Origin: Patescibacteria group bacterium
GTDB lineage: Bacteria > Patescibacteriota > Microgenomatia > PFEM01 > JAHIFH01
DNA length: 32,869 bases
NCBI GenBank assembly: GCA_018900995.1
Contig: JAHIFH010000049.1
Location: 1-32,869, forward strand
Direction: 5' to 3'
Each line of letters begins with the position of its first letter. Within the stretch, counting starts at the first letter, position 1. Of the stretch, positions 1-32,868 are shown piece by piece. The position numbers were made by a program, and so were the translations under genes. Below the pieces are notes generated by a model. The model made no database searches. It was given only the letters and a program-made list of their open reading frames with translations, and was not told the origin of the DNA.

Positions 1-85
1 AATAGGTCTGTTTGAGAATGCTCTCAATCGATTTTTTCAGCAATCGAGCCCGGTTGCGGGTGGGAAGAATGATACTAACATTCAT
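1..85 (-). CDS. Glycosyltransferase family 2, N-terminal fragment (gene continues beyond left window edge)
   Basis: Absent from the ORF track because the window edge truncates it. The minus-strand ATG at 85..83 overlaps the TGA (84..82) of the upstream methyltransferase as ATGA. My translation MNVSIILPTRNRARLLKKSIESILKQTY is a typical GT2 N-terminus. GAGGA lies 7 nt upstream of the ATG. Confidence 0.7.
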   Translation of the reverse strand, partial: MNVSIILPTRNRARLLKKSIESILKQTY

Positions 86-726
86 TGTTTTTTCCTCAAG
101 ACCAGCAGATACCTATTTTTCTTAAGCCAAGGAAATCCCCACCGATTAAGAATATTAAAAGGAGCATCCAGATATTTCACTTGATAAGCAAAAGGTTGGT
201 AGTTCCATTTGAGGCAGATGGCTTGAAACTGGTCGGTAATCTGTCTCAAGGTATGTTGCTGATGCCCAGGAGTAAGATAACGAACAATCGCCGCAGGTTG
301 GTAGGGTTTGATATGAGTTAAATCAGCGTAAAACTTATCCCACATAAGAGGCGACCTGATAACCAACATCCCGCCTGGCTTGAGAACCCGATTAATCTCA
401 GAAAGAATTTTATGAACATCAACAGGCAAAAAATGTTCTATCAGGTGGGAACAATGAATTGCCGGGACTGACTCGTCTTTGAAAGGTAAAGCCCTGGCAT
501 CAGCCCTTTTAACCTGATAGCCTTTTTCCTTACACTTTTTTATTGACTGACGATTCCAATCAATGCCTCTTATCTTTTTGGGTTTTTGAGCAAAAAACCT
601 TCCTTCGCCACAGCCAACATCCAAAATCCAATCATAATTTTTAAGATAAGAGTAGGCAATCTTATCCTCTTCTTTTTCTGGTTCGAATCTATATTTTTGC
701 CAAATTTTTTTTAATAATTTTTTCAT
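82..726 (-). CDS. Class I SAM-dependent methyltransferase
   Basis: 214-aa ORF with SAM motif I LDVGCGEGRF, downstream acidic residue (IRGIDWN), AIHCSHLIEHF and VLKPGGMLVI, as in Methyltransf_11/23-type enzymes. Confidence 0.85.
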   Translation of the reverse strand: MKKLLKKIWQKYRFEPEKEEDKIAYSYLKNYDWILDVGCGEGRFFAQKPKKIRGIDWNRQSIKKCKEKGYQVKRADARALPFKDESVPAIHCSHLIEHFLPVDVHKILSEINRVLKPGGMLVIRSPLMWDKFYADLTHIKPYQPAAIVRYLTPGHQQHTLRQITDQFQAICLKWNYQPFAYQVKYLDAPFNILNRWGFPWLKKNRYLLVLRKKQ

Positions 727-730
727 TTGC

Positions 731-1960
731 TTAAGACTTCGTTATTCGGACAGCTTCAAAAATAAAGGCTATCGTTATCACCAGATTGCTTATAAGAACA
801 GCCGTCGCCACCCCGACTACTCCCCACCTCATCGCCAGCCAATAGATAAAAATGACTAGGACTAACAAGCGAATTACCTGCCATCTCGTTTCTATTTCTG
901 GCTTTCCCAGAGCATAAAAAACCGAACCGGTGGTGCTGGCGATTGATTCTAATAAACCAGCCAAAGCCAAAATCCGCAGGATAGAAACTAGCGGCAGCCA
1001 CTTTTCCCCTAAGAATATTTTAGTAAAAGGATAGGCAAAAATAAAAATTAATCCTGAAACGAGAATAGATAAAAAGAATACTCCTTGAAAAACTCTCAAA
1101 AAGGCTTTTCTTAATTGAGCTAAGTTATCTTGTAATTTGGAATAGGTGGGAAAAGTAACTTGAGAAATAACATGGCTAATTTCGGTTGCCGGGAGGTTAG
1201 AAATTTTGTAAGCCATTTGATAAAAACCTAGGGCGGTGACACCAAAAAACCGACCGACAAAAATATCATCCCCATGAGTAACCAGGAAAATTAAAATGCT
1301 TGAGCCAAAAACCCACCTGCCAAAATTAAAGAGCTCTGCTGTTTTTTTGATGTCTAAAACAAACCTCGGGCGCCAAGGATGAAGAAAATAACTGGTAATC
1401 AATCTTGCCAGACTGCCAGCTAAAAAGCCAAAAACTAGCGCCCAGGTATTTCGTAATATTAAAGCAGCGGTTACAGCAACAAGAAAATCAGCCAAAACTC
1501 CGCTCAGCTCATAAAAGAATTGTCTATTAAACTCCAAATCTTTTCTAAAATAAACAATGCCAATATTAGTGAAGGCCTGAACCAACAAAGAAAGACTAAT
1601 AACGCGGATAATGGGTATAGCTAATGGCGTCCCGAAGAAAGTAGCCGCATAAGGAGCAATTAAATAAAGAAAAGTGAAAAGAAAAACTCCCCTTAAAACT
1701 AGGGCTGCCCAAGCAGAATTGAGATAGTCTTCAATCTTTTCTTTCTTTTGAATTAAGGCTTGCTGGAAGCCAGTTTCGGAGAAAGTCTCTAGGGTTGCCA
1801 TTGAAAGAAGCGCAATTCCCATTAACCCAAAGTCATCAGGAGCTAAAAGACGAGCAAGAATGATTAGTCGCAAAAAAGAAAAAGCCCGAGAAACAATCCG
1901 AGTAGTAAAAACCCAAAAACCGCCTTTGAATGCCTTTTGTTTAAGACTTGCTTCAGCCAC
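731..1960 (-). CDS. MOP-superfamily polysaccharide flippase (Wzx-like, Polysacc_synt_3-type)
   Basis: 409-aa ORF that is polytopic throughout (about 12 hydrophobic segments). The N-terminus KQKAFKGGFWVFTTRIVSRAFSFLRLIILARLLAPDDFGLMG is typical of lipopolysaccharide/polysaccharide biosynthesis flippases. It starts with GTG at 1960 and I see no obvious SD. Confidence 0.75.
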   Translation of the reverse strand: MAEASLKQKAFKGGFWVFTTRIVSRAFSFLRLIILARLLAPDDFGLMGIALLSMATLETFSETGFQQALIQKKEKIEDYLNSAWAALVLRGVFLFTFLYLIAPYAATFFGTPLAIPIIRVISLSLLVQAFTNIGIVYFRKDLEFNRQFFYELSGVLADFLVAVTAALILRNTWALVFGFLAGSLARLITSYFLHPWRPRFVLDIKKTAELFNFGRWVFGSSILIFLVTHGDDIFVGRFFGVTALGFYQMAYKISNLPATEISHVISQVTFPTYSKLQDNLAQLRKAFLRVFQGVFFLSILVSGLIFIFAYPFTKIFLGEKWLPLVSILRILALAGLLESIASTTGSVFYALGKPEIETRWQVIRLLVLVIFIYWLAMRWGVVGVATAVLISNLVITIAFIFEAVRITKS

Positions 1961-1985
1961 TAGGTCAATTCTATCATAAAGCCAA

Positions 1986-2016
1986 CAAAAAAGAGTGCCT
2001 ACGGCACTCCTTTTTG
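1986..2016 (-). terminator. Rho-independent terminator-like hairpin (near-palindromic, potentially bidirectional)
   Basis: The stem GAGTGCC (1993..1999) pairs with GGCACTC (2003..2009) around a 3-nt loop. On the minus strand the hairpin is followed by TTTTTT then GTT and preceded by AAAAAG. It sits in the only sizeable noncoding gap, downstream of the GT2 stop at 2102. Confidence 0.6.
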
Positions 2017-2050
2017 AGATCCTCAGGTGTGAAAATCAATTCACTCTTCC

Positions 2051-2079
2051 AAAATAGCCAATTAATTTTGACATGTCAA
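2051..2079 (-). promoter_or_regulatory. Candidate sigma70-like promoter TTGACA-N17-TATTTT within a perfect 12-nt palindrome TTGACATGTCAA
   Basis: The palindrome TTGACATGTCAA lies at 2068..2079. On the minus strand, TTGACA (2079..2074) is followed by 17 nt and then TATTTT (2056..2051). The call rests on sequence pattern only. It lies upstream of the terminator-like hairpin, so its role is uncertain; it could instead be an operator. Confidence 0.3.
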
Positions 2080-2101
2080 GTACCAATTCTAATTTTTTCG
2101 A

Positions 2102-3100
2102 CTACAACCACAGCTTTCTTTTTCCTGGCTTGGCGAGAGTAAAAGAGATTGCTAATTTTAAATTAATTAAAATTTTATTCCAAAATCTCGGCTTAAGCAT
2201 CGCCATTGGCAAATAAAATAAGGAAATAATTAACCAATTAAAAATAAGCGCCCATTTTATAGAAGCTGTTTTAAACCAAGAATAATGCTTCTCACAAAAA
2301 AACAAGAGACTAGCAAAGTTGCGTTGATAGTAATCAAACTGATTCTTTTTTTGGGAAATAACTTGGGCAACGCTAGCACCTCGCAGATGGATAATTTGCG
2401 CCGCTGGCTCAACTAAAGTTTTCCAGCCAGCTTTTTGGATTCTTTTGCTCAAATCAGAGTCTTCAAAATAAAAGGGAATCTTTTCATCAAAAAGACCAAC
2501 TTGGTCAAGAACTTTTTTCCTAACCATCAGAGCTGCCCCTGATAATTGTTCAATGATATGGGGATTTTTAGGATCAATCGGACAGAAAAGAAGACTTCTT
2601 AAAAAAGGTATTTTCAAAAAGATTTTTCTGAAGAAGGGATTGTAATAAAACAAGGCGCTCGCCACTGATGGATAACGGAGATAAACAGGATCAATTTGGA
2701 TACTGCTATCTTTGTTTAAGATTAAGGGGCAAACAGCACCGGCTTTTTTATTCTGGCTAAGGTGCCGGGCTAACTTAGCAATAGCGTCTTTCTGAACAAT
2801 CGTATCGGAATTCAAAAACATAATTAAATCACCTTTGGCAACTCTAATTCCCTGATTATTGCCCTTGGCAAAGCCTAGATTTTTCTTATTTTCAATAAGT
2901 CTAATTTTGATTTTTTGATTTTTTGATTTTTTGATTTTTTTCACTATTTCCGGACTACCATCAGTTGAGCCATTGTCCACGACGATGATCTCGGTGGTTG
3001 GTGGTCGGTGACTGGTGGTTAGTGAACTTAAGATTGAATCCAGACAGTTCCTCAATAATTTTTTGGTATTCCACGAGAGAACTATAATTGATATCTTCAT
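2102..3100 (-). CDS. Glycosyltransferase family 2
   Basis: 332-aa ORF with ISIIVLSWNTKKLLRNCLDSI...EIIVVDNGSTDGS, FLNSDT, FYFEDSDLSKRIQKAGW and one C-terminal hydrophobic segment. Its ATG at 3100 overlaps the TGA of the upstream gene (ATGA). Confidence 0.9.
   Translation of the reverse strand: MKISIIVLSWNTKKLLRNCLDSILSSLTTSHRPPTTEIIVVDNGSTDGSPEIVKKIKKSKNQKIKIRLIENKKNLGFAKGNNQGIRVAKGDLIMFLNSDTIVQKDAIAKLARHLSQNKKAGAVCPLILNKDSSIQIDPVYLRYPSVASALFYYNPFFRKIFLKIPFLRSLLFCPIDPKNPHIIEQLSGAALMVRKKVLDQVGLFDEKIPFYFEDSDLSKRIQKAGWKTLVEPAAQIIHLRGASVAQVISQKKNQFDYYQRNFASLLFFCEKHYSWFKTASIKWALIFNWLIISLFYLPMAMLKPRFWNKILINLKLAISFTLAKPGKRKLWL
2905..2941. repeat. 8-nt tandem repeat (plus strand TTTTTTGA; coding strand TCAAAAAA), 3 full copies plus partial copies at both ends
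   Basis: Read directly: ttttga, then ttttttga at 2911..2918, 2919..2926 and 2927..2934, then ttttttt. It lies inside the GT2 CDS and encodes KKIKKSKNQKIKI. The unit length is not a multiple of 3. Confidence 0.85.
2994..3022. repeat. Left arm of a GGT-rich / ACC-rich imperfect inverted repeat bracketing the four-helix-bundle gene
   Basis: gtggttggtggtcggtgactggtggttag matches the reverse complement of 3474..3502 at 22 of 29 positions. In minus-strand RNA, 25 of 29 positions can pair when G-U is allowed. The arm lies inside GT2 codons encoding TTSHRPPTT. Confidence 0.6.
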
Positions 3101-3471
3101 CTTTTTAACTTTTTTCTTAGTGATTTTATAAGAGAGCTTATTGAAACTATCAATTGTTCATATCTTTCTATAAGCTGACTGCTTTTCTTCTTACCAATAT
3201 AATCGAGCTCTGTAGAAATTATGAGGTGAGAAATAACTTCTCCCGCTGAACCTCTCGCATTTATTAAAAAACTAATAAGTTCTTTGGTTGTTTGCCGATA
3301 GAATCCTTCCGCAATATTTGCCATCACCGAAATTGCTGCTCTTCGCAATTGAGATGTTAGTCCAAATTTTTCACTAGTGGGAAAGGTGGCAGTTAATTTA
3401 TAAATTTCGACCACTAAGTCTTTAGATTTCATCCAAATTCTTAGTTCTTTTAAGTTTTTAATCTTTTTCAT
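3097..3471 (-). CDS. Four-helix-bundle protein (23S rRNA intervening-sequence protein / Avd-like family)
   Basis: The sequence LRIWMKSKDLVVEIYKLTATFPTSEKFGLTSQLRRAAISVMANIAEGFYRQTTKELISFLINARGSAGEV matches the family signature (E.fGLtsQlrRAa.Si..NIAEG...s..E...fl..A.gS..E). I place the start at the internal ATG 3471 (MKKIKNL...). The ORF-track extension to 3528 overlaps the flippase and reads through the ACC-rich repeat. Confidence 0.85.
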   Translation of the reverse strand: MKKIKNLKELRIWMKSKDLVVEIYKLTATFPTSEKFGLTSQLRRAAISVMANIAEGFYRQTTKELISFLINARGSAGEVISHLIISTELDYIGKKKSSQLIERYEQLIVSISSLIKSLRKKLKR

Positions 3472-3473
3472 CA

Positions 3474-3502
3474 CAAACCACCAACCACTAACAACTAACC
3501 AC
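3474..3502. repeat. Right arm of the GGT/ACC-rich imperfect inverted repeat
   Basis: caaaccaccaaccactaacaactaaccac lies immediately upstream (in the minus sense) of the four-helix-bundle start codon and spans the flippase stop codon (3495..3497). Confidence 0.6.
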
Positions 3503-4724
3503 TTCTCAATACCTTCCAAACAAACCAATTATTGATAAGCAATCCCGCTGCCTCTCCTCCCAGCACTGCCCAAGCAGCGCCCAAAACTGAATAACGAGGA
3601 ATCAAAAATAAACATAAAAAAATGGCGATTAAAAAGTTTAACACTGCCAATGGTAAAAATCGTCTCACTTTTGGTGAATTGAGAATGATATTGGCAGGCA
3701 AAGCATTAACAAAAAATAAAACTAAAGCGACCCCTAAAACAGAAAGCACAGGCGCCGCCGGTAAATAATCTTGACCATAGGAAAAACTGACAATCCATTT
3801 GGCAAAAAATACCAAAACCAAAGAGAAAGGCAGAGAAAACAGAAATAAAACTCCTAAGCCTCTTTTATAAACGGCTGCTAGATTTTTTTTATCATTAACA
3901 AACAGTCTTGAAGAAAGAGGAAAGAGGGCTAAAGCCAAAGACTGAGGAATTAAAATCATTGCTTCAATAAATTTAAAAGCACTCCCATAAAGACCAGTAA
4001 AATAAGCCCCTTTTAAAATACCAACCAAAACAAGAGAAAGGCGCAAATAAAAAACAGCTAAAATTGTTAAGGCAGCAAAAACCCAGGATTGGCTAAGAGC
4101 TTTTCGCCAAAATCCTCTGTCGACAACCCAGTTAAGAGGAAGATGCCAAGATGATGATTTGACCAAAAAAATAAGAGCAATAATTAACTGCCCCAAAACA
4201 TAGGCAAGTAAAATCCAAATCAAAGAAAGTTGGGCGAAAACAAAAGTTATTCCCAAAAAGGCAGTCAAGCTAATCGTACCGACATTGGCCATCGCCATAT
4301 ATTCCATTTTCTCCTGAGCATTTTGGAAACTGGCAATTAGATAAGTCAGGCTGTAAGGAATTAAGGAGAGACCAAAAATAGCTAAATAAAAAATTTGTTT
4401 TAACGGCTGGCCGAGAATAATCCCTAAAAATAAAGCGGCAAAATAGGCAAAAATCGCCAAAAGAAATCGCAAAGGTAAAAGCCGAGAAAAATAGAATTGA
4501 GTTTTTTCTGGTTTCCTAGAGATATCTCGAAGAACTAATCTCTCAATACCAAAGTCAGCTACGGGAACAAAGTTGTAAATAAAAGCCAGAGTAAAATTAT
4601 AAATCCCAAAAGTCTCAACTCCTAAAACCCGCGCCAGAAAAATAAAATAAAAAAAACCAATCCCCCGAGCAATTATTTGGGAAAGGGAGAGAAAAAGAGT
4701 GTTTTTGGCAATTTTGCGAACCAT
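3495..4724 (-). CDS. MOP-superfamily oligosaccharide/polysaccharide flippase (Wzx-like, Polysacc_synt-type)
   Basis: 409-aa ORF, polytopic throughout. The N-terminus KNTLFLSLSQIIARGIGFFYFIFLARVLGVETFG is typical of the family. GAGGGG precedes the ATG at 4724. Confidence 0.75.
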   Translation of the reverse strand: MVRKIAKNTLFLSLSQIIARGIGFFYFIFLARVLGVETFGIYNFTLAFIYNFVPVADFGIERLVLRDISRKPEKTQFYFSRLLPLRFLLAIFAYFAALFLGIILGQPLKQIFYLAIFGLSLIPYSLTYLIASFQNAQEKMEYMAMANVGTISLTAFLGITFVFAQLSLIWILLAYVLGQLIIALIFLVKSSSWHLPLNWVVDRGFWRKALSQSWVFAALTILAVFYLRLSLVLVGILKGAYFTGLYGSAFKFIEAMILIPQSLALALFPLSSRLFVNDKKNLAAVYKRGLGVLFLFSLPFSLVLVFFAKWIVSFSYGQDYLPAAPVLSVLGVALVLFFVNALPANIILNSPKVRRFLPLAVLNFLIAIFLCLFLIPRYSVLGAAWAVLGGEAAGLLINNWFVWKVLRSG

Positions 4725-4761
4725 CCCCTCAATTTTACCACTTTAGCGATTTCGTCACTAA

Positions 4762-6333
4762 TCAATTCCCCCAAGAATAAAGCCAGGCTGGCCAAGTATC
4801 GTATGGGTCGGGATCAAGAGAAAAACGACTGAATTCGATCTCCAGTTGAAGATTATTCTCGATATGCTCCAAAGCATCTTTAGGCAAAAAAGGAATCTCA
4901 TGCCCATCGATAAAAACAAAACCCTTGGGATTAGTTCTGATAACCTGGAGGAGGTCATTTTTGTCTGTAATTGCCCCAAAGCTCAAAGTGTTCTCTCTTT
5001 TTTCCCCTCTTTCTACTCTATAACTAAGCCGCTCGGCTTGGCGAATCCAAAAAGCATTAGGGTAATCTCTGCCTAAATACCAAACAATTTTATCTCCCCA
5101 GGTATCAATCACCACGACTGGCTGGTCAGACTGTGCATTTTGTTTTTTTATTAAATCATAGGCAAGATGGTAATCAACCAGAGGAATTTGTTTCATATCG
5201 GCATTCGGCGAATAAAATAAGCGTGGTTTAAAAGTAAACTTGTGACCATTAATAACCAACAAACAAACAAAAAAGAAAAGGAGAACTACTTGAAGTCTTG
5301 ACGATTTCCGCAACCACCAACGACTGACATTATCAAGAAAATAAACTAAATAAGCAAAGAAAAATATTGGAAAAATAGGATAAAGATAGCGAACATCAAG
5401 CCAAGAGAAAAAGAAAATAACCGCTACCAGGTGAGTTGCCAAAACGGTCACTAAAAAGAAGTGCTTTTTTTCTTTAGTGGAAAGAGCAAGTAAAATCCCA
5501 AGAAATGCCAAAAAAGAGACTAGCGAATATTGCCGCCACAAAAAGGAATGATAATACCAAAAATTATTATATATTTTCAGGGGTAACTCACGCTGTATAA
5601 CTATTGCCTCAAAGATGGTGCCCAGTCCAGACTGCCAAAGGAGCCAGAACAAAACAAGAAAAATCAAGCCAGTAATAATTTTCTGTTTACCAGTTAGGTG
5701 TCTTAAAAACCTGATTACATCTTTTCTGGCGAAAAAGATAATATAGGCAACTCCAGCCAGGACAAGTGTCGCTGCCCAGAGATGAGCCAGCAGAGAAATG
5801 ATTAGAAAAAGGGCAGGGATGATTAAATCTCGATAAGCCACTTTCTCTTTTCTCATCTTCTCAAATAGTTGGCAAAGGAAATAGGCGGTTATCAAATAAG
5901 CCAACTGAAGTAAAGCATAACTCCTTGCTTGACGCGACCAAGTAATTTCAATGACGGAAAAAGTGGTTAAGATAGCCACCCCTAAGCCAATTCTTTTATT
6001 AAAGAGTCTTGAAAAAACGAGAAAGACAACCAGGATCGTTAAAGTTCCCCAAATTACCGAAGGAAAACGAGCAGCAAATTCATTCACCCCCAAGAACTTC
6101 ATTGAAAAGGCAGTGAGATAATGATTAAGCAAGTTTCTTGTTTCAAAATAGCCAGTGACTGTTTGAGGATAACCGCTCTCGACAATGGCGGCGGCAAACT
6201 GACCCGTAGAAAACTCATCAATCCAAAAGGGGTAATTGGCTGAAAGACCATAAATTCGATAAAAAAAGCCAACAACTAATAAAACTGCCAAAATTAATAT
6301 TATTAGTAAGCTATCTTTCTTCTTTTTTCGCAC
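4762..6333 (-). CDS. GT-C fold membrane glycosyltransferase, family 39/83-like (ArnT/PMT-type)
   Basis: 523-aa ORF with about 11 N-terminal TM helices and a C-terminal soluble domain of about 140 aa. The first-loop acidic motif YPFWIDEFSTGQFA resembles that of ArnT/PMT-type enzymes that use polyprenyl-phosphate sugars. GTG start at 6333. Confidence 0.7.
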   Translation of the reverse strand: MRKKKKDSLLIILILAVLLVVGFFYRIYGLSANYPFWIDEFSTGQFAAAIVESGYPQTVTGYFETRNLLNHYLTAFSMKFLGVNEFAARFPSVIWGTLTILVVFLVFSRLFNKRIGLGVAILTTFSVIEITWSRQARSYALLQLAYLITAYFLCQLFEKMRKEKVAYRDLIIPALFLIISLLAHLWAATLVLAGVAYIIFFARKDVIRFLRHLTGKQKIITGLIFLVLFWLLWQSGLGTIFEAIVIQRELPLKIYNNFWYYHSFLWRQYSLVSFLAFLGILLALSTKEKKHFFLVTVLATHLVAVIFFFSWLDVRYLYPIFPIFFFAYLVYFLDNVSRWWLRKSSRLQVVLLFFFVCLLVINGHKFTFKPRLFYSPNADMKQIPLVDYHLAYDLIKKQNAQSDQPVVVIDTWGDKIVWYLGRDYPNAFWIRQAERLSYRVERGEKRENTLSFGAITDKNDLLQVIRTNPKGFVFIDGHEIPFLPKDALEHIENNLQLEIEFSRFSLDPDPYDTWPAWLYSWGN

Positions 6334-6664
6334 TTTTTCTTTCCTCCTTTAAATACTCGATAAACATCTGTGCTATGCCGACTACTAAAAACATATAAGC
6401 CCAGATAGCGGCTTTTTCAGCAATCAGCTCTTTCTTTAGAATCAACAAAAATGGACACATCGCCAAAAATATTAAACCACCAGCAACAGAAACTCTTCCT
6501 TCAAAATTGTAAAGCCAGATACTTATAATCCATAAACCAATCAAAAAGAAAATGATTAAACCGCTAATGGAAGTAAAAACAAATATATTGAATAAAATGC
6601 CAATTCCGGCTAAAAGCAGTAGCCAAAATTTATATTTCTCCAAAAAAATTCTAATTTTTCTCAT
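6311..6664 (-). CDS. Small integral membrane protein, unknown family
   Basis: 117-aa ORF with 3-4 hydrophobic segments and a Lys/Glu-rich tail. It overlaps both neighbours (14 nt and 23 nt), which is consistent with co-translation. I recognise no motif. Confidence 0.55.
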   Translation of the reverse strand: MRKIRIFLEKYKFWLLLLAGIGILFNIFVFTSISGLIIFFLIGLWIISIWLYNFEGRVSVAGGLIFLAMCPFLLILKKELIAEKAAIWAYMFLVVGIAQMFIEYLKEERKSAKKEER

Positions 6665-9600
6665 TTCTTTTTTCTACTTTCCTCTTAGTAAAATCATATC
6701 CTAAATACCCCAAACAACCCAAAAGTGCCACTAAAGAAATTCCCAGGCCAACATAAAAAATGCGTTGGGGCCAAAATTCAATGACGAGTTCGTAATTTTC
6801 TTTACCATCACTATCTTCCGGTGTAACATACCAAGAATTGGCATAGCCATTGACCAAAAGGTGGCGCTCTTCAGGAATTGGTTTTTTATTCCAAGTCTCA
6901 AATGTATTTCTATCTAAAAAGATGTTTTTATGTATTCTTTCTTTTATCTCTCCATCAAAGTAACTCGCCACAATGTTTCCATATTGCTGATCACCGGTCA
7001 CTGACCACTGATCATTAACATACGCTTTCCAACCTTCATGAAAACTTTCAGAAAAAACCAAAGTGTAAGGCTCTCTTGCTCCCTCAATTTTAACTTTATA
7101 TTTTGTTGGGTTGATTTTTATGAAAGTAATTTTGGGCATCTGAGGTGATGGCTGATATTGGGTAGTGTGAAAGATAATCGTAGGCTCAAATACCCTCTCG
7201 ATCTTGACGTTAGTAAAATTAATTTTTGACTCTCCCCCCTCTTCTGTTTCTTCCCAATATCTAACCTCTTCTGGTTTGGCCCAAAAATAAAATTCAGCTT
7301 TCTCTGCTCCAAAAGTGGATTTAATGACTCTTTCAAAATGACCAGGTAGGTCGATACCAGTTGCCGACAATTTTTCCCAAAACCGCAATTCTCTTTTTCT
7401 GACACCAACGTCTTCAATAATAATTATTCCCGCCTCACCCCAAGCAGTAAAATAATCAAAAGAAATTTTGTAAGAGATATCTCCTTGATAATTTTCGATT
7501 GGCTTAAAGTAAACAATTGAGTCCTCAGGAAATGCTTGCTGTAGATTGGCGGAAGAAATTAATTTATCTCTCACAAAAAGACTCTCCGCCAAGTTGTCTT
7601 GCCAACTACTGTCGCCAAGTAAGTTGAAAATCTGTGGTTTAGTTAGTTTCAACTCTTGCTCTCCTTTTTCTAGCCTGAAACTTCCGCCAGAAATCCAATT
7701 ATCCTTTTCAGCAGGAAGGGGGATGGTTATCTTCTCACCAAGAAGGTCTAATTCTAATTGAGTCTCGCGGAAATACCGACTAAATTCCTCATTTTTAATT
7801 AACAACTGATAACTCCCTTCTTTAGGAATCTCAAAATTATAAGCACGTTCTGTAAAATCATATTTTGTTTTTAAGTGTTTGACCTTGTCTTGCAATTCCT
7901 TAAAAATAGCCTTGGCTTTCTCTATTCTCTCTTCGTCAAACTCCATCATTGATATCTTTTCCCAATGAGCTCCAAGGGAAGTTTCTGTGTTTAGGATATT
8001 TTGCTTAAGAGCCTTTTTATCCTGCCAATTATCTTCTCTTAACAAACCTAACGCCTCCTCCATTTTTTCCTTATATCTTATTAGAGTTTTATCCAAATCT
8101 ATATCTTTTTCCCATTTTTCTATCTCACTTATTCTTTTGCTAGCATAAAACAATTTTTTGTCCAAAAGCTCCTCTTTGTTATCTCTGGCTCTCCATTCAT
8201 AAAATTGCTCTTTTTTTAAAACCAAAGAATAAATCAAACCTCCTGGTTTCCAGCGGACATAAGGAAAAGCAATGTTTTCCGGGTGCAGCTCATTTTTTGC
8301 TAATTTCTTCTCGCTAATTACATTTTCTAGCTTAGCCTCTATAAAAAACTCATTCGCCTTCTTCATCAGTATTCTCTGTATCTCATCAGTGTTATCCGCA
8401 AGGAAAATCGCAGATCTGATACTCCAATTATCAAAACTCACAACATCAGATAAGCCCTCTATATTCCCATCCGAATAAATGATATTTTGAGAAGGGTAAA
8501 AATGGGAAAGAAACTTCTTATTTTCAAAAACTACGACCGAACCATCAACCAGAACTTCTTGAAATTTATCATCATTTTCCAATTTGTGATAAATCGTTTC
8601 CATAGGCGGCTTATTAGGATCGTCATAGGCATTAAGGCGAACAACAAGATATTTTATATTGGCTAAACTAAGGATATCGGCCAAATATGGGTTCTTATCC
8701 GCATAAATATTTCTTTGAATAGCTTCGGCAAAGTCACGTCCATATCCGGTTTCTCTATCAGTAACAGCAATCTGACCTGGCTTTCGAGCAAGTCCAGCGA
8801 ATAGATCCCAAATGGCTCCATAAGGGCCGGCAGTTTTGGGTTTATCCCGAAAAGCAACAACTCCTCCTCCTGTTGGTAACCAAAGAACCTTAAAATCGCC
8901 TTCCTCTTCGGCAAGCCACTCCTCTACCCTTTGGTACTCAGGCGAAAATTGGATCGTTTTTAGCCTGACATCTCTTTCTAATTTTGCTTCTTTTGCCAGA
9001 CCACCCGACCAAAATGGATATGAAGTCAGAATATTGGTACTAATAAATAAACTAATAAAGATAAAACTGACAATCTTGTTTTTTTTAAACCAATCATAAA
9101 GCGCGTCTAGGGTGAAAGCCAACAAGGCCGAATAGGCAAGGGCAGAGAGAATAAAATTGCGAGAATAATCACGGAATATCTGGCTGTAAGGAATAAAAAG
9201 CAGAAGTTGCCTTGCCCAAAAAATACCTAGGGGAACAAACGAGAGGATGGCAAAAAAAAGAATACGACGATTTTTATTTCTTAAGATAAGGGCTGAGTAA
9301 GCAAAAATGGGTAATAAAAAAGTAAAAACAACTAAACTGTGGGGGAGGGCTGTTTCAAACTGAAAGTTAAATACACTACCCCAAAGACGCAACATATCTA
9401 AGGAGTTAAGTCGAATGCCAAAACGAGCAAAATCGTATAAAGAGATGGAAGATTGGAGTGACGGCTCGAAAAGGAGGGGCATAATCCAATAAGAATTAAA
9501 CAAAAATGTGAGTAAAAAAACAAAACCTAAAAATTTGAGATAGTCCTTTAATGTTTCGCGAGAAGTGACGACAAAAATCGAGCTTAAGACAAAAACGATA

Positions 9601-26538: not shown

Positions 26539-26556
26539 TTCCGCTAAACTGATCTT

Positions 26557-27741
26557 TTACCTTATATTTGACCAAGTTTTCATCAAGGCCTCTTGAAAAA
26601 CATTATCCCAAGTATAATTAGCCACCAGTTTAATTGCATTCACTCGTGTCTTCTGATAAAGCCGATCATCAGTCAACAAACGAATAATAGCTTCAGCGAT
26701 TGCCTTTTTATCATAATCAACCAACAAACCAGCCTTTTTCTTTTGAATTTCATAAGCAATCTGAGGTACAGGCGTAATGACCACTGGCAAGCCACAGGCC
26801 AAATAAACCTTAACTTTGCCGACATCAGAATAAAAGCTATAACTGTCTGAGTCGGGGACATAAGGAGCTACAGCCACAGCGCCTTTGGCCATGATCCTTT
26901 CTAATTCAGCATGGCTTTCAATATAGCCAGTAAAGAAGACTCTCCCGGATAACCCCAGCTCCTTAACTCTTTTCTCTAAACGTTTCCTTAAAACCCCGCC
27001 GCCAATGATCACCAGCCTTGCTTTTTTCACCTTTCGGCAAACCTCAACAAAAGCCTCAATTAATATCATTATTCCCTTATTCTCCAAGAGATGGCCCATA
27101 AAAATCACTCTAAAACGGTCGATTTTTTCAATCGGAGGTCTTTCAATTTGTTCAAAATGGCTCCCATCAGGAACAGTAATTTGTTTTGCTGCCTTTTCAG
27201 TCCTGACCCCCATTTTTTCTCTTTCGGCCACCATAAGCTCCGAGCTATTCCAAATAAGATCAGCCCGATAACAACAAATTTTATCAACTAAATGGTAAAT
27301 CGAGTTTAAAAGACTATTTTCAAACCGTCTGGGAGTATAATCCACCGTAGAGTAAATAACTTTTTTAACTATTCCCAATCTTCGTAAAACAAGAGCACTG
27401 AATGTATTGAGGTTGTCAGCAGCCATGCAAAAATCAAATCTTTTCCCCAATCTTAAAGTAAAAAAGACAGTAAAAAAGAAATCCTTGAAATAATAAAAGA
27501 TGTCTGGGCCGCCAATTCTTGGCGCCACAAGCCTTTTGACAATTTTGCCTTTTTGGTATAGCGTCGCTGAGGAATGCTTTTCCTCAGCATAAAAAAAGGG
27601 GTGATTAATAAAAGCTAGAAGAGAAACTTTGTCTTTAAGGAAAGCAACGAATTCTTGAGCCGGACCGGCGTCAAAGGGAGAATGGGTAATAATCAAAAAC
27701 CGGCTTTTTTCAAGCCAAGTTAGTCTATCTTTTATTATCAT
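26557..27741 (-). CDS. GT-B fold glycosyltransferase (family 4/1-like)
   Basis: 394-aa ORF with RVIFMGHLLENKGIMILIEAF, LVIIGGG, FTGYI and KVKVYLACGLPVVITP. This layout is typical of Glycos_transf_1 domains. Confidence 0.75.
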   Translation of the reverse strand: MIIKDRLTWLEKSRFLIITHSPFDAGPAQEFVAFLKDKVSLLAFINHPFFYAEEKHSSATLYQKGKIVKRLVAPRIGGPDIFYYFKDFFFTVFFTLRLGKRFDFCMAADNLNTFSALVLRRLGIVKKVIYSTVDYTPRRFENSLLNSIYHLVDKICCYRADLIWNSSELMVAEREKMGVRTEKAAKQITVPDGSHFEQIERPPIEKIDRFRVIFMGHLLENKGIMILIEAFVEVCRKVKKARLVIIGGGVLRKRLEKRVKELGLSGRVFFTGYIESHAELERIMAKGAVAVAPYVPDSDSYSFYSDVGKVKVYLACGLPVVITPVPQIAYEIQKKKAGLLVDYDKKAIAEAIIRLLTDDRLYQKTRVNAIKLVANYTWDNVFQEALMKTWSNIR

Positions 27742-28348
27742 CTTTTTCTTGGGCAGGAGAATTTTTTAAAGATTTAACCACTCTAGCAGGATTACCAGCC
27801 ACAATTGAGTGGGGCGGCACATCATGAGTCACTACCGCTCCCGCGGCTACAATCGCCCCATTACCAATCTTTACTCCTTTATAAATCATCACCCTTCTCC
27901 CAATCCAAACATCATTGCCAATTTTTATAGGCTTATAGACAATTTCTCTTCCAATCTCTCGTCGCCACTTCAACGTTTCTCGCCTTCTTTTGAGATAATC
28001 CGTCGAGTGACTATTATGATCTTCAATATAAACATCCGAGGCAATATTACAATATTTACCAATTTCAATATTGCCTGCCGCCTTAATCACTGTCCGAGGA
28101 TGAACTAAAGTATAATCGCCAATCTTAATTTTCCCTTTTTTGATCGCTATCAACCAGCCTTTCATAAGAACATTATTGCCTATTCTGATATTTCTCTTGA
28201 TGCCTGTTTCGTTAATAATTCCCCCACCCAAGAAAAAATGGACATTTTTGCCATAAAACGAATTTCTCTTGGCGTTTAGGTGCTTAACCAAAAAACCTCC
28301 CAAATCAAACATTAAAAAGTGATATAAACTATAAAGATTAAGTTTCAT
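27725..28348 (-). CDS. Hexapeptide-repeat (LbH) sugar acetyltransferase
   Basis: 207-aa ORF with left-handed beta-helix repeats IGNDVWIGRRVMIYKGVKIGNGAIVAAGAVVTHDVPPHSIVAGNPARVV. Confidence 0.85.
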   Translation of the reverse strand: MKLNLYSLYHFLMFDLGGFLVKHLNAKRNSFYGKNVHFFLGGGIINETGIKRNIRIGNNVLMKGWLIAIKKGKIKIGDYTLVHPRTVIKAAGNIEIGKYCNIASDVYIEDHNSHSTDYLKRRRETLKWRREIGREIVYKPIKIGNDVWIGRRVMIYKGVKIGNGAIVAAGAVVTHDVPPHSIVAGNPARVVKSLKNSPAQEKDDNKR

Positions 28349-29271: not shown

Positions 29272-29279
29272 TTTCCTCC

Positions 29280-30362
29280 TCACCTCCAATCCACTTTCCC
29301 TATCCAATCATCCCGGTTTTCTGCATACCACTGGATCGTCTCTTTCAAACCCTCTTCCCAAGAATACCTTGGCTTCCAACTAGTCAACCTTCTTAATCTT
29401 GAATAATCAACCCGAAGCTCTTCAACTTCGCTCCTACCCAACCTTCCCCGCCATTTTTCATAAACAACTTTTTTCTCTCCCCAATAGCCCATCTCCCGCC
29501 CTAATTTTAGAATCAAATCAAGCCAGTCTTTCATCATTATGGTTTTACCCGAGCCAAAACAGTAAACCTCCCCTGGTCGGCCAAATAAATTAACATGAAT
29601 ATGGCCCATTACCCCATCTTTGACATAAGTAAAATCTCTTTTGGCCCCCAAGTAACCAAGCTTAATAAGCTTCCTTTCCAAAGCCTGAGTAATAATCACG
29701 CCAGTAATAAACCGGGGATTTTGCCGCGGGCCATAATTATTAAACTTCCGCGCCACTCCCGTTGGGATCCCATAAGCGCGGTGGTAATTCCGAAATAAAA
29801 AATCACCGGCCACCTTGGAGGTGGCGTAAATGCTTTGAGGATTGAGCGGAGTAAATTCATCCAAAATTAAACCCCCACTCTTATCAAAACGATAAAGTTT
29901 CTTCAAATGAGGATCAACATTACCATATTCTTCTGAACTACCAGCAAAACTAATTTTTCTCACCTTTAATTTAATATCACAGATCGTCTGGAGAACATTT
30001 AAAGTGCCTATCGCGTTTGAGCTAAGAGTTTCATAGGGTCGCCACCAAGATTCGCCTACATGAGCCTGGGCAGCTAGATGGAAAATTACTGGTTTTGAGG
30101 AACCTTCTTTCTTAATTTTCATCAACACCCTTCTCACCGCTTCTTTATCAGCGATATCGGCCCGGTGAATGGTAATTTTTTTTTGGATATGGGCTAAATT
30201 ATGATAGACCCCCGAAGAAGATGGTCTGAGCAATACATGAACATCAGCACCAAACTCAACCAGTTTGTCAGTTAAATGTGAGCCAACAAAGCCATTAGCC
30301 CCGGTCACCAGAACTGTTCTTCCTTTTAAAATTCTTTTAATATCCTTATCTGTTCTTTTCAT
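29280..30362 (-). CDS. NDP-sugar 4,6-dehydratase family extended SDR (GDP-mannose 4,6-dehydratase / Rmd-like)
   Basis: 360-aa ORF with VLVTGANGFVGSHL, HLAAQAHVGESW, GSSEEYG, YATSKVAGDFL and FNNYGPRQNPRFITG. Confidence 0.65.
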   Translation of the reverse strand: MKRTDKDIKRILKGRTVLVTGANGFVGSHLTDKLVEFGADVHVLLRPSSSGVYHNLAHIQKKITIHRADIADKEAVRRVLMKIKKEGSSKPVIFHLAAQAHVGESWWRPYETLSSNAIGTLNVLQTICDIKLKVRKISFAGSSEEYGNVDPHLKKLYRFDKSGGLILDEFTPLNPQSIYATSKVAGDFLFRNYHRAYGIPTGVARKFNNYGPRQNPRFITGVIITQALERKLIKLGYLGAKRDFTYVKDGVMGHIHVNLFGRPGEVYCFGSGKTIMMKDWLDLILKLGREMGYWGEKKVVYEKWRGRLGRSEVEELRVDYSRLRRLTSWKPRYSWEEGLKETIQWYAENRDDWIGKVDWR

Positions 30363-31444
30363 TTTTTCTTTTTGAAAAAATTTTTAATTTCTTTACACAC
30401 TCTTTTGATATCTCTCTTGGTTAAAAACAGGGAGGAGGGAAGCCAGAGTCCGTGCTTTGAAGCCCAAGTTGAAACCGGAAATCCCCCCCTACCTCTATAA
30501 GGCTTTAAAGAGTGAATTGCAGGGTAAAACTCACGCGTTCCAATCTGCTTGCTATTTAGATATTCTTTAAGCATTTTCGGGTTATCAACAAAAATATCTA
30601 CAAACCACGGTGTAGTCTGAGTTAAATCGGTTGGCAACATCTTAATTTCCTCAACATCCCTAAGCTCTTCTTGATAAATCCGGTACATCTTTCTCTTCCA
30701 TTTAATTCTCTTTTCAAGCTTTTTCATCTGAGCGATTCCTACAGCTGCTTGGATATCAGAAAACTTAAAGTTCCAGCCAATAGTATCGTGTTTTTGAGTC
30801 TTGCGATCAATTCGGCCGAAATCTTTGATCCGATACATCTTATCTCTTAATCTTTTACTATCTGTAACTACAACCCCTCCTTGTCCGGTAGTAATAATCT
30901 TAGGGGTAGAGAATGAAAAGCTTCCAATTTCTCCAAAGGTTCCCAGGTGTTTCCCTTTATAATACGATCCCAAAGCTTGAGCAGAATCTTCAACAATAAA
31001 AAGATTATATTCTCTAGAGATCCTTTCAATTCCATCCATATCTGGAGGCCGTGCATTCATCGCTACCGGCATAATTGCCTTTGTTTTTTTAGAAATTTTT
31101 TTCATAACTTCTTCTAAATCAAGACAAAGATTATCTCTTTTAATATCTACTAAAATTGGGGTGGCCCCCGCAAGAAGAACTGCATTTGGAGTAGCCACCA
31201 TAGTCATATCTGGGATAATCACTTCATCGTCTCTTCCTATCCCTAATGCCATTAAAGCAATCGTTAGACTTACCGTTCCATTATTTGCTGCCAACCCATA
31301 ACGGCTCCCCACAAAGTCGGCTACCATCTTTTCAAATTTATAAGTCCTTTCTGCTTCAGTAATCCAACCCGAGTCGATACAAGCGATCAGTTCTCGCTTT
31401 TCTTCTTCGCCCACCCAAGGCTCCATCTGATTAATTCTTTTCAT
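30359..31444 (-). CDS. DegT/DnrJ/EryC1/StrS-family PLP-dependent sugar aminotransferase
   Basis: 361-aa ORF with NNGTVSLTIALMALGI, VEDSAQALGS and FSFSTPKIITTGQGGVVV (PLP lysine context). AGGAG lies 7 nt upstream of the ATG. Confidence 0.9.
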   Translation of the reverse strand: MKRINQMEPWVGEEEKRELIACIDSGWITEAERTYKFEKMVADFVGSRYGLAANNGTVSLTIALMALGIGRDDEVIIPDMTMVATPNAVLLAGATPILVDIKRDNLCLDLEEVMKKISKKTKAIMPVAMNARPPDMDGIERISREYNLFIVEDSAQALGSYYKGKHLGTFGEIGSFSFSTPKIITTGQGGVVVTDSKRLRDKMYRIKDFGRIDRKTQKHDTIGWNFKFSDIQAAVGIAQMKKLEKRIKWKRKMYRIYQEELRDVEEIKMLPTDLTQTTPWFVDIFVDNPKMLKEYLNSKQIGTREFYPAIHSLKPYRGRGGFPVSTWASKHGLWLPSSLFLTKRDIKRVCKEIKNFFKKKK

Positions 31445-31446
31445 CT

Positions 31447-32451
31447 CTATCTCCTTTTAAAGACCTTCATCATGCTCGGATTATACCAAATTTCATATTT
31501 TGGATCATAGGGATCAGTAAATATCTTCTTCTCTAAAGCATCTTTTATTTCTAGAAATCCTTCTTCGACTGTCTTCTTGGGTTTAAAACCTAAAACTTTT
31601 TTAATCTTGGTAAAATCAACCCGATAGTCACGAAGGTCTTTTTTCTCCTCGATGGTCTCAACTTTGACATCGGGGATGTATTTTTTGACTAACTTAAGCA
31701 ATTGCCTTTTTTGGTAATTTTGGGTCCCGACGTTAAACACTTCTCCCGAAATTTTATCTAAAGGTGCTTTCAGGCAAGTAAGATAAACATCAGCCGCGTC
31801 TTGGACATGAGTAAATGCCCGCCAGCATTGAGGACCATAAACTAACACTCTATTTTTCAATACCGCTTCTCGAGCAAAATCATTAACAATCAAATTAAAT
31901 CTCATTTTGGGGGAAAGTCCAAATTTCATTGCCAAACGAAGAATACAAGGATGAAAATTTGCTGTTTTTGTTTTTTGGAGATATTTTTCACAGGCAACCT
32001 TCGTTTCAGCATATAAAGAGGTGATATCCAATGGGGTATCTTCTTGGGCTAATCCAGCTCGATGAATCCCATAATTACTACAAGTTGAGGCAAAAATAAA
32101 TCGCTCGATTCTCTTCTTTCGACAAGCATCAGCAAGCATCCTAGTAACTTCGTAATTTATCGCTTGGGTTACCTTTGGTTGAAAATTACAAGCTTCCTGG
32201 CCTACTAAAGCTGCCAAATGAACCACTGCGTGAATCCCCTCAAGAGATTTCTCAACTAGTCTTTTCTCTCTCAAATCACCCTTAATAAAGTCAAAGTTCT
32301 TTTTCCCCCAAACTCCAAGCAGACTCTCGCCACCAAACATTAAGAAGTCAACTACGCGAACCTTAAACCCCTCATTCAGAAGCCTAGGAACCAAAATAGA
32401 ACCTACGTAACCAGCTCCACCAGTTACAAGAATTTTTTCGTTCTTGGACAT
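31447..32451 (-). CDS. NAD-dependent epimerase/dehydratase family protein (extended SDR)
   Basis: 334-aa ORF with ILVTGGAGYVGSIL, VVHLAALVG and YAETKVACEKYL (YxxxK). AGGAG precedes the ATG. Confidence 0.8.
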   Translation of the reverse strand: MSKNEKILVTGGAGYVGSILVPRLLNEGFKVRVVDFLMFGGESLLGVWGKKNFDFIKGDLREKRLVEKSLEGIHAVVHLAALVGQEACNFQPKVTQAINYEVTRMLADACRKKRIERFIFASTCSNYGIHRAGLAQEDTPLDITSLYAETKVACEKYLQKTKTANFHPCILRLAMKFGLSPKMRFNLIVNDFAREAVLKNRVLVYGPQCWRAFTHVQDAADVYLTCLKAPLDKISGEVFNVGTQNYQKRQLLKLVKKYIPDVKVETIEEKKDLRDYRVDFTKIKKVLGFKPKKTVEEGFLEIKDALEKKIFTDPYDPKYEIWYNPSMMKVFKRR

Positions 32452-32464
32452 AGCCTTCTCCTGA

Positions 32465-32868
32465 CTACAAAAATTTTCTGATTTTGTTAAATAGCCAAAG
32501 TTTTTGATTTGGAGTAATTATTGGCATCACCACAGTTATAAAAAGCAGAAAGGTATAAACTCTATCCCATAATGACGCTTGATATAAATCGTAGAACTTT
32601 TTTCTTGCCTTAATTGTTTTAAATTCCATTGCTCTTAATCCACCCACTGTCATCGAATCAGAAACAACTCTATACTTAATTAATTTGTCTTTTAGATTGG
32701 CAAATTTTGCATGTAAACCTATTCTAAAATACAATTCATAATCTTCAGCAGGATTGTAATAATGGTTATATAGCCCAGAATCAGTCAACACCGCCTTTCT
32801 AATTATAACTGCCGGATGACAAAAAGGACTATATCTGAAAATCTTTTTTCTAATTTTTTCGTCTGTCG
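32465..32868 (-). pseudogene. Glycosyltransferase family 2, C-terminal part, apparently frameshifted (or assembly indel); truncated by right window edge
   Basis: The ORF-track frame (GTG at 32791) reads ...NPAEDYELYFRI...KYRV, a typical GT2 C-terminal region. In-frame upstream it reads SFCHPAVIIRKAV after a TAG at 32828..32830. A different frame is open from the window edge (TTDEKIRKKIFRYSPFVIRQL). One extra base in the A4 run 32821..32824 would fuse them into RYSPFCHPAVIIRK. Confidence 0.5.

Follow-up and report, generated by a model that had tools for sequence, protein, structure and literature searches.

The stretch of DNA analysed here, 32,869 bp of contig JAHIFH010000049.1 from a Patescibacteria group bacterium (the window in the following, always at its full length), is densely filled with genes for glycan assembly and sugar modification. 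We consider it fairly probable that the window belongs to a very large, modular region for glycans of the cell surface, which serves extracytoplasmic glycosylation dependent on glycosyltransferases (GTs) of the GT-C type and which does not follow the Wzy, ABC or synthase logic. The Pfam search of the window proteins identified seven class I S-adenosylmethionine (SAM) methyltransferases (MTs), five complete GT2 and two GT4 enzymes, one PMT_2-type GT-C, two MOP flippases, four extended and one classical short-chain dehydrogenases/reductases (SDRs), one DegT aminotransferase, one hexapeptide acetyltransferase, and two proteins combining a B12-binding with a radical SAM domain (PF02310 + PF04055; class B architecture; B12-rSAMs). 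These numbers reproduce the class counts of an earlier note on this DNA, with the GT2 fragments at the two edges as weak matches; the genes for a 23S_rRNA_IVP protein (3097-3528) and for an open reading frame (ORF) with three transmembrane (TM) helices (6311-6664) come in addition to its tally.

The genes are tightly packed. As the earlier note had stated and the ORF listing confirms, all 30 complete ORFs (82 to 32451) and the two genes truncated by the edges (2-85 and 32465-32869) lie on the minus strand, which under random orientation of 32 genes has a probability of about 2^-31. The coding share of the window amounts to 99% with ATG-adjusted starts, 13 gene junctions show 4-nt overlaps, and the gaps measure at most 37 nt except for a single one of 141 nt (1961-2101).

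Central to our reading are three GT-Cs, one small membrane protein and two flippases:

6651..10175, minus strand: AftD-like GT-C of 1174 aa, recognised by TM prediction, family profile and AlphaFold2 (AF2) fold match
6311..6664, minus strand: three-TM protein of 117 aa (s117), defined by homolog alignment, downstream partner of AftD-like genes
4762..6333, minus strand: PMT_2-type GT-C (GT39/GT83-like); PF13231 at 45 bits (cut-off 26.1), loop-1 'DE' motif WIDEF at residues 37-41
23372..25615, minus strand: ArnT/PMT_2-like GT-C of 747 aa; homologs with PF13231, AF2 fold match to ArnT
3495..4724, minus strand: MOP (Wzx-like) flippase in a PMT_2-MOP-GT2 cassette; PF01943 at 89 bits
731..1960, minus strand: MOP flippase (Polysacc_synt_3); PF13440 at 271 bits, PRK10459 at 225 bits (cut-off 273)

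The earlier note had recognised three GT-C-like proteins, of which one is recovered as PMT_2 by Pfam and the other two by profile and fold searches. The 1174-aa protein, which on its own has no Pfam match at E <= 0.01, begins with about 12 TM helices, continues with some 750 aa of soluble sequence and ends in a single TM anchor; an aspartate in loop 1 (D34) is nearly invariant. A profile built from 16 sequences of its family matches AftD (6W98/6WBX) with an E value of 1e-6 over ~500 residues plus the C-terminal motif, and the AF2 model (pLDDT 73) finds AftD as its best Foldseek match in the PDB (E 2e-14, TM-score 0.47), followed by PglB/STT3. Some of the AftD-like relatives carry PF11847, and the Methanoperedens ortholog passes this model at 57 bits. 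Judged by profile and modelled fold, the 1174-aa protein is an AftD-like GT-C. A role of the three GT-Cs as STT3-type oligosaccharyltransferases was rejected, as PF02516 and the WWD/WxDYG motif were found in none of them and PglB/STT3 are second-tier folds; it is because of the absent WWDYG motif that we assign the 1174-aa protein to the AftD-like and not to the STT3 type. Genes of the decaprenyl-phospho-arabinose pathway (UbiA/DprE-like) were not found in the window by Pfam. The AftD-like family is large, with 20,627 representatives of 50%-identity clusters at E <= 1e-3, and to our knowledge it is uncharacterised outside the Corynebacteriales.

The 747-aa protein likewise has no Pfam match of its own. 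Its AF2 model (pLDDT 81.6) matches ArnT (5F15) as the top Foldseek result with an E value of 2.7e-4 and also CBM32, which corresponds to a CBM32/discoidin-like beta-sandwich modelled between TM1 and TM2 (residues ~47-182). This carbohydrate-binding module (CBM)-like insert suggests, as far as the model goes, a carbohydrate acceptor. The genomic contexts of the homologs of this GT-C are likewise rich in MT, rSAM and GT genes.

Among the window proteins, Pfam left Bac_transf, Glycos_transf_4, Wzy_C, EpsG and Wzz of the Wzx/Wzy type unmatched, with the MOP flippase as the component of this type that is present, in two proteins; in place of a polymerase, the polytopic proteins of the window are GT-Cs. 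Unmatched in the window were also ABC_tran and ABC2_membrane of the ABC type as well as NTP_transferase, the family of the pyrophosphorylases. An enzyme of the synthase type was not found either, as the GT2s have 0-3 TM helices, all of them C-terminal, and PgaC and CelA match only the N-terminal GT-A core, far below the cut-offs. The Pfam results are in line with the earlier note, which had seen no initiating phosphoglycosyltransferase (PGT), Wzz/Wzc, ABC exporter or nucleoside diphosphate (NDP)-sugar pyrophosphorylase in the window, and Pfam annotation of the loci L003, L006, L085, L086, L089, L090 and L091 likewise showed no PGT (L numbers denote related loci). From these absences the note had concluded that the layout fits none of the textbook types. 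Here we come to a different view, since the layout does fit a known, GT-C-dependent logic (PMC11127046), in which Wzy, Wzz and ABC genes, possibly also a PGT, are dispensable; the GT-C component of the three-component systems following it is present in the window as PMT_2, ArnT-like and AftD-like proteins.

The window might alternatively belong to a conventional Wzx/Wzy heteropolysaccharide locus for a capsule, an exopolysaccharide or a secondary wall polymer, whose PGT, polymerase and nucleotidyltransferases lie outside the window and whose GT-Cs add side-branches or ligate. Such a locus would account for the two Wzx-like MOP proteins, of which the one at 731-1960 reaches 225 bits with PRK10459 and 168 bits with TuaB, as well as for the many Leloir GTs, and it would agree with a locus that probably extends past the window, as an identical DegT protein is listed elsewhere with a longest contig of 49,162 bp, which exceeds the window. 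However, Wzy_C, Wzz and PGT are unmatched in the window and none of them was seen in the annotated flanks of seven related loci. Three GT-Cs per 33 kb and the conserved coupling of GT-C genes to GT, MT and rSAM genes across phyla indicate in addition that the GT-Cs are central and not accessory, which is why we regard a Wzx/Wzy locus as unlikely.

The coupling became apparent from comparative genomics. One genome per species of the Genome Taxonomy Database (GTDB) was scanned with a six-sequence AftD-like alignment, which gave 231 relatives, with 78 loci kept, and all ORFs of the related loci were classed by phmmer against the window proteins. The best matches of the AftD-like protein among the GTDB species representatives show only 37-39% identity and are labelled Patescibacteria, Microgenomates, Shapiro-, Levy- and Gottesmanbacteria. 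Those relatives of the AftD-like and of the 747-aa protein that have a name are called 'Patescibacteria group bacterium', and for the DegT protein the names found at about 61% identity are Levybacteria and Gottesmanbacteria. Taken together, these matches point to an uncultured, probably Microgenomates-like member of the Patescibacteria as the source, for which there is no close species representative. Where a species-representative locus extends 5 kb or more upstream of the AftD-like gene, this region contains on the same strand a GT gene in 33/39, an MT gene in 20/39 and a B12-rSAM gene in 17/39 cases; a B12-rSAM gene downstream of the AftD-like gene was found in 0/51 loci. The Leloir GTs and MTs of the window, which take part in the recurring cassettes or accompany them, are the following:

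26557..27741, minus strand: GT4 (GT-B) glycosyltransferase; PF13692, PF00534
20147..21199, minus strand: GT2, soluble; PF00535 at 79 bits
18034..19161, minus strand: GT4, first gene of the GT4-GT2-MT cassette; PF00534 at 105 bits
17036..18037, minus strand: GT2 of the GT4-GT2-MT cassette; PF00535 at 88 bits
14756..15730, minus strand: GT2 with 2-3 C-terminal TM helices; PF00535 at 102 bits
10172..11209, minus strand: GT2 directly upstream of the AftD-like gene, with a 4-nt overlap; PF00535 at 94 bits
2102..3100, minus strand: GT2 with one C-terminal TM helix, in the PMT_2-MOP-GT2 cassette; PF00535 at 108 bits
25612..26538, minus strand: class I MT with an N-terminal Cys4 zinc-ribbon; PF08241 at 67 bits
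16354..17046, minus strand: class I MT of the GT4-GT2-MT cassette; PF08241 at 43 bits
15741..16382, minus strand: class I MT; PF13489 at 78 bits, paralog of 12722-13345 (42% identity)
14038..14811, minus strand: class I MT; PF08241 at 73 bits
13361..14071, minus strand: class I MT; PF08241 at 60 bits
12722..13345, minus strand: class I MT; PF13489 at 79 bits
82..726, minus strand: class I MT; PF08241 at 70 bits

The metagenome contigs L003 and L006, whose AftD-like proteins share 52-54% identity with that of the window, show the order MT-MT-(rSAM)-GT2-AftD-like...s117-like...PMT_2-MOP-GT2. In both of them, orthologs of the GT2 at 10172-11209 (550-673 bits) and of the MT at 14038-14811 (307-354 bits) occupy the same position and the MT at 12722-13345 has orthologs of 343-375 bits; the ortholog of the rSAM at 11236-12711 in L006 reaches 1068 bits. 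The order GT4-GT2(17036)-MT(16354) recurs in L014, in L016 (Chloroflexota) and in L084, and in L009 only the GT2-MT pair is adjacent; the orthologs in these four loci reach 309-360 bits for the GT2 and 226-256 bits for the MT, which adjoins the GT2 in each of them. The PMT_2-MOP-GT2 cassette was found in at least seven Microgenomates-type loci (L003, L008, L009, L011, L013, L014, L025). In the cultured archaeon Methanocaldococcus indicus SL43 (L073:4130-12514), the genes GT2-B12rSAM-(small membrane protein)-GT2-MT-GT2-AftD-like follow each other on one strand, and Methanoperedens (L052:5623-10477) carries rSAM-GT2-AftD-like. The cassette of MT, B12-rSAM, GT, AftD-like GT-C and three-TM protein recurs in Patescibacteria, archaea and other phyla, and its presence in the cultured M. 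indicus makes it experimentally approachable. Judged by sequence comparison, the locus is a mosaic of cassettes, which recur separately in other genomes. The synteny search proposed by the earlier note thus returned recurring cassettes, yet no characterised syntenic locus; a full-text search of the literature gave neither such a locus nor a Patescibacteria glycan locus nor a B12-rSAM in an envelope glycan cluster. As a separate observation, many TPA records labelled 'uncultured Gammaproteobacteria bacterium' (L007, L010, L017, L024, L025 and others) hold loci typical of Patescibacteria, and their labels look unreliable.

The three-TM protein s117 has a homolog directly downstream of the AftD-like gene in 23 of the 69 testable loci, across phyla (examples are L009:13752-14084, L013:12327-12638 and L017:13847-14188). 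The members of its family measure about 105-125 aa, span the membrane three times and share the motif EKAAIW..FL..G..Q in their C-terminal part. An identity as GtrA-type flippase was discarded, as 0/18 members matched PF04138 and no consistent Pfam family was found. The protein may represent a dedicated subunit of the AftD-like GT-C.

The second hallmark of the window is its methylation load. O-antigen and capsule loci of the ordinary kind are generally known with no methyltransferase or a single one. The density of MT and rSAM genes amounts to 2.7 per 10 kb in the window compared to a median of 0.89 among the 49 related loci that measure 15 kb or more, so the earlier note was right in calling the load high. 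The uniqueness that it implied is lost, since two of the closest relatives, L006 (3.4) and L007 (3.2), exceed the window in density, as the only ones of the 49 loci; from this we conclude that the high load is a trait of the locus type of this lineage and not singular. The seven MTs are at most 42% identical to each other; recent tandem duplication was dismissed on this ground, and we regard them as distinct enzymes. The MT at 25612-26538 has a Cys4 zinc-ribbon-like motif (CCSRC...CKGC, residues 11-33) in front of the class I fold.

The profiles alone did not identify the substrates of the MTs, and it is conceivable that the latter modify small molecules, proteins or lipids and simply happen to lie beside glycan genes. 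The generic matches would agree with this, since the best partial NCBIfam models are UbiG, UbiE, BioC and MetW, all well below their cut-offs, and the solved relatives include phosphoethanolamine and alkaloid N-methyltransferases. Against it stands the conserved gene order: for six of the seven MTs, orthologs (110-375 bits) keep their position beside GT2, GT4 or GT-C genes in other genomes and phyla, among them those of the MT at 25612-26538, which adjoin GT2, rSAM and AftD-like genes in L065 (210 bits) and L062 (280 bits). Several MTs also overlap GT genes by a few nucleotides, and the low mutual identity does not point to recent duplicates. We therefore hold a role outside the glycan pathway to be quite improbable. 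With respect to the MT families, on which the earlier note had made its claim depend, the outcome is divided: no sugar-MT family but only generic class I assignments were obtained, while the positional orthologs next to GTs speak for the claim. The glycan role of the MTs would thus follow from conserved synteny.

The two B12-rSAMs and the SDR that accompanies one of them are encoded as follows:

21969..23375, minus strand: B12-rSAM; PF02310, PF04055, CPFNCNFC (CxxxCxxC) at residue 210
21163..21972, minus strand: classical SDR oxidoreductase; PF00106 at 154 bits, 4-nt overlap with the upstream rSAM 21969-23375
11236..12711, minus strand: B12-rSAM; PF02310, PF04055, CPFECTFC (CxxxCxxC) at residue 203

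Neither of the two rSAMs was assigned to a family with proven methyl transfer, and no NCBIfam cut-off was reached. The rSAM at 11236-12711 matches best ApyD (145 bits, cut-off 750) and PhpK (127 bits, cut-off 600); the solved relatives of the two rSAMs are AprD4, 9CCB and TokK. It is a serious possibility, although we rate it below even, that at least one B12-rSAM catalyses a radical rearrangement or deoxygenation of a sugar instead of a methylation, in which case the methylation load would be 7 or 8 and not 9. The rSAM at 21969-23375 has its best NCBIfam matches in HpnJ (194 bits) and BchE (180 bits), neither of which is a methylase, and among solved proteins it comes closest to AprD4 (6FD2, E 2e-21), a diol-dehydratase of sugars. 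AprD4 works with the NADPH reductase AprD3 in the C3-deoxygenation of a sugar (PMC5461906), and the 4-nt overlap of the rSAM with the SDR gene at 21163-21972 recalls this dehydratase-reductase pair, so that the two enzymes may by analogy perhaps deoxygenate a sugar. However, all matches remain far below the family cut-offs, the AprD4 match is limited to the radical SAM core (residues 202-393), and models of TokK, PhpK, HpnR and C-methylases of ribosomally synthesised and post-translationally modified peptides match too. Moreover, the rSAM-SDR pairing was seen in none of the 84 other loci censused, which leaves the AprD4/AprD3-like pairing as a lead only. The earlier note had counted nine methylating enzymes, about one per GT. 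The numbers are 7 MTs and 2 rSAMs to 12 GTs. The seven MTs stand; the two rSAMs are not established methylases, and for the one at 21969 the HpnJ, BchE and AprD4 matches argue against the count. In a related locus (L090:3304-7202), a radical SAM gene is flanked by genes for an FNR-like flavoprotein and a small ferredoxin, which may serve the electron supply.

The part of the window that is upstream in the direction of transcription contains a block of sugar-tailoring genes, and one further extended SDR is encoded between the Leloir GTs:

31447..32451, minus strand: extended SDR, GalE-like NDP-sugar epimerase/dehydratase; PF01370 at 139 bits, TIGR01179 at 126 bits, below cut-off
30359..31444, minus strand: DegT/LegC/perosamine-synthase-like NDP-4-keto-sugar aminotransferase; PF01041 at 332 bits, LegC at 274 bits, below cut-off
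29280..30362, minus strand: extended SDR, NDP-hexose 4,6-dehydratase-like; PF16363 at 203 bits
28345..29307, minus strand: extended SDR, GDP-L-fucose-synthase-like 3,5-epimerase/4-reductase; PF01370 at 180 bits, NF047922 Fcl at 232 bits, below cut-off
27725..28348, minus strand: left-handed beta-helix (hexapeptide) acetyltransferase, WbbJ-like; PF00132, PRK09677 at 93 bits, below cut-off
19143..20150, minus strand: extended SDR, NDP-sugar dehydratase/epimerase-like; PF01370 at 142 bits

The SDR at 29280-30362 also matches LegB with 177 bits and dTDP-glucose dehydratase with 161 bits, in either case short of the cut-off, and homologs of the DegT protein at about 60% identity carry the name 'perosamine synthetase' given by the Joint Genome Institute (JGI). 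Taken together, the block 32451-27725 looks like a pathway for 6-deoxy and 4-amino-4,6-dideoxy-hexoses. With regard to the lipid-linked donors, the GT2 at 14756-15730 matches DPMS (5MLZ, 2e-8), GtrB (5EKP, 1e-6) and ArnC (5e-5), with the curated models of polyprenyl-phosphate GTs unreached, and appears as the best candidate for a polyprenyl-phosphate glycosyltransferase.

The analysis demonstrates the gene classes, the identity of the GT-Cs, the dense packing and the conservation of the cassettes. We infer the carrier, the acceptor, the order of the steps, what the rSAMs catalyse and that the sugars are methylated, as follows. The block 32451-27725 would produce 6-deoxy and 4-amino-4,6-dideoxy NDP-hexoses, the latter probably N-acetylated, in the cytoplasm. 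The Leloir enzymes of the GT2 and GT4 type would assemble mono- or oligosaccharides on polyprenyl phosphate, with the GT2 at 14756-15730 as candidate starter on the monophosphate, and the seven SAM methyltransferases and two B12-rSAMs would modify the sugars while these are still cytoplasmic. The two MOP flippases would then carry the lipid-linked donors across the membrane, and the three GT-Cs would transfer the sugars outside, either onto a wall polymer or lipoglycan or onto a surface or S-layer glycoprotein. It is reasonable to infer from the gene content that the product is a methylated envelope glycoconjugate.

Several points weigh against this reading. The absence of PGT and Wzy refers to the window only, and either might lie just outside. 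No GT2 of the window attains the cut-off of a curated polyprenyl-phosphate glycosyltransferase model, and the GT2s at 10172 and 2102, which adjoin two of the GT-Cs, are without any match to DPMS, GtrB or ArnC. The MTs match no known sugar methyltransferase family and only generic NCBIfam models, far below the cut-offs (the models of MftM and of the Pse-associated methylase give 30-46 bits compared to cut-offs of 112-200); their closest solved relatives are uncharacterised MTs, such as 3CC8 for the MT at 12722-13345, or small-molecule N-methyltransferases. The rSAMs, for their part, may not methylate, as judged from their matches, and no experiment exists on any member of this locus type.

In a wider and more tentative proposal, to which we attach considerable doubt, the core cassette would represent a widespread unrecognised envelope-glycosylation pathway of Patescibacteria, DPANN, methanogenic archaea, Chloroflexota, Omnitrophota and others. 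Within the cytoplasm, methylation and radical chemistry (C-methylation, deoxygenation or rearrangement) would act on a lipid-linked sugar, which a dedicated GT-C of two subunits would then transfer outside, and the window would be an extreme multi-cassette form, giving a heavily methylated surface glycan.

The remaining features of the window concern its edges, a passenger gene and transcription:

32465..32869, minus strand: GT2-like C-terminal fragment, cut by the edge; PF10111 weak (E 0.006), one C-terminal TM helix
2..85, minus strand: first 28 codons of a GT2-like gene, cut by the edge; PF00535 at 20.6 bits (E 4.7e-4), just under the cut-off
3097..3528, minus strand: 23S_rRNA_IVP / four-helix-bundle protein; PF05635 at 122 bits, TIGR02436 at 122 bits, above cut-off
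1986-2016, minus strand: terminator-like hairpin with a 14-bp stem followed by a T-run (2016->1986), inside the gap 1961-2101

The hairpin is located between the GT2 at 2102-3100 and the MOP flippase at 731-1960 and can be read on both strands. Promoter-like and terminator-like matches in the whole window are in total no more frequent than in shuffled sequence, and only this hairpin stands out by its position and stem length. Since it sits in the sole sizeable gap, the block probably comprises at least two transcription units, 32869->2102 and 1960->1; the 'superoperon' of the earlier note is not supported, in view of the hairpin and of the separate occurrence of the cassettes. The GC content of the window is about 0.37 and the GC skew is negative all along. 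No tRNAs, Rfam RNA genes or riboswitches and no marker genes were found in the window, and its three plus-strand ORFs of at least 100 aa all lie inside minus-strand genes and have no Pfam match. The locus probably continues past the window, given the contig listed with the identical DegT; look-ups of the exact window proteins gave only short contigs of the same organism (L001, L002), and a metagenome scan with the SDR at the edge gave only 27%-identical relatives.

The 23S_rRNA_IVP gene is probably a passenger. Its protein is the only one to reach a curated NCBIfam cut-off (of a subfamily model, not an equivalog), which no enzyme of the window does. Homologs were observed at varying positions in related loci (L003, L006, L013 twice, L064), similar to a mobile passenger, and L006 (17874-20468) harbours Fic and HicA/HicB toxin-antitoxin genes inside an otherwise syntenic glycan locus.

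A relative whose DegT protein is 81% identical carries the same sugar-tailoring block, which is followed by rSAM-MT-GT4-MT and a phosphonate module (L091:17648-21083, L092:10649-13546). The latter consists of a fusion of Fom1-like cytidylyltransferase and phosphoenolpyruvate mutase, a thiamine pyrophosphate-dependent decarboxylase, an iron-containing alcohol dehydrogenase and a Phosphodiest-family protein, which suggests phosphonate-decorated glycans in this relative. Its glycan region spans at least 45 kb, because an rSAM-AftD-like cassette shares strand and contig.

The superfamily of every component and the overall logic are known already. Two features are undescribed in the literature searched: that class I MTs and B12-rSAMs are coupled in a conserved way to an AftD-like GT-C with its small partner, and the multi-cassette, methylation-rich elaboration seen in the window. 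Patescibacteria and DPANN are mostly episymbionts, whose surfaces mediate the attachment to the host and about whose envelope glycans next to nothing is known; the window and its relatives indicate that a sizeable and conserved part of these small genomes is devoted to GT-C glycosylation with unusually heavy methylation and B12-rSAM tailoring. If the core cassette functions in the proposed way, it would add a new tailoring layer to glycosylation with lipid-linked donors, namely radical and methyl chemistry on a carrier-bound sugar, and would provide a function for the very large AftD-like GT-C family outside mycobacteria.

Among known systems, the three-component systems (GtrA/GtrB/GtrC, CsbB/GtcA/YfhO and that of Citrobacter) resemble the window in that the GT-Cs are expected to use polyprenyl-phosphate-linked donors outside the membrane, as well as in a MOP/MATE-type flippase as possible carrier of the donor, the membrane-anchored GT2 candidate and the CBM on a GT-C. 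In Citrobacter youngae, PPPRS, a MATE flippase and a GT136 GT-C (with CBM) build O-antigen side chains, and the lipid-linked donor is enzymatically modified before the transfer (PMC11127046). The window differs in that it is a block with 7 MTs, 2 B12-rSAMs, three GT-Cs and about 9 Leloir GTs and not a set of three genes, in that it lacks a GtrA-type flippase, and in that oligosaccharides may serve as its donors; for these systems, no precedent is described in which donors are methylated or tailored by radical chemistry. With mycobacterial AftD (PF11847; 6W98/6WBX), the 1174-aa protein shares the N-terminal GT-C membrane domain, the large extracytoplasmic soluble domain and the C-terminal motif. 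In contrast to AftD, to which it is about 11% identical, it occurs in Patescibacteria and not in Corynebacteriales, without decaprenyl-phospho-arabinose genes or an arabinogalactan context, and is coupled to a three-TM partner, MTs and B12-rSAMs.

The Agl pathway of N-glycosylation in Haloferax volcanii employs the GT2s AglJ, AglG, AglI and AglE, the methyltransferase AglP, the flippase AglR and the GT-Cs AglS and AglB. Common to this pathway and the scheme proposed for the window are several GT2s, acting on polyprenyl monophosphate, a Wzx-like flippase, extracytoplasmic GT-Cs, a SAM methyltransferase for the lipid-linked glycan and the dispensability of a WbaP/WecA-type initiator. The window, unlike the Agl pathway, contains no STT3/AglB homolog or WWDYG motif, has far more MTs as well as B12-rSAMs, and belongs to a bacterial host. 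The mycobacterial methylated polysaccharides (MGLP/MMP), which the earlier note had named as an analogy, combine several methyltransferases and glycosyltransferases on one glycan, as the window would, but these polymers are cytoplasmic and need neither flippases nor GT-Cs, there is no known synteny, and glucosyl-3-phosphoglycerate synthase matches only weakly and only the N-terminal GT2 part (25-37 bits, cut-off 262). Finally, the class B rSAMs of aminoglycoside pathways, i.e. the C-methylases GenK and GenD1 and the dehydratase AprD4, resemble the B12-rSAMs of the window in their B12 plus radical SAM architecture beside sugar-tailoring and GT genes. The similarity lies far below the cut-offs, and in contrast to the aminoglycoside enzymes the substrates in the window are presumably envelope glycan precursors and not antibiotics.

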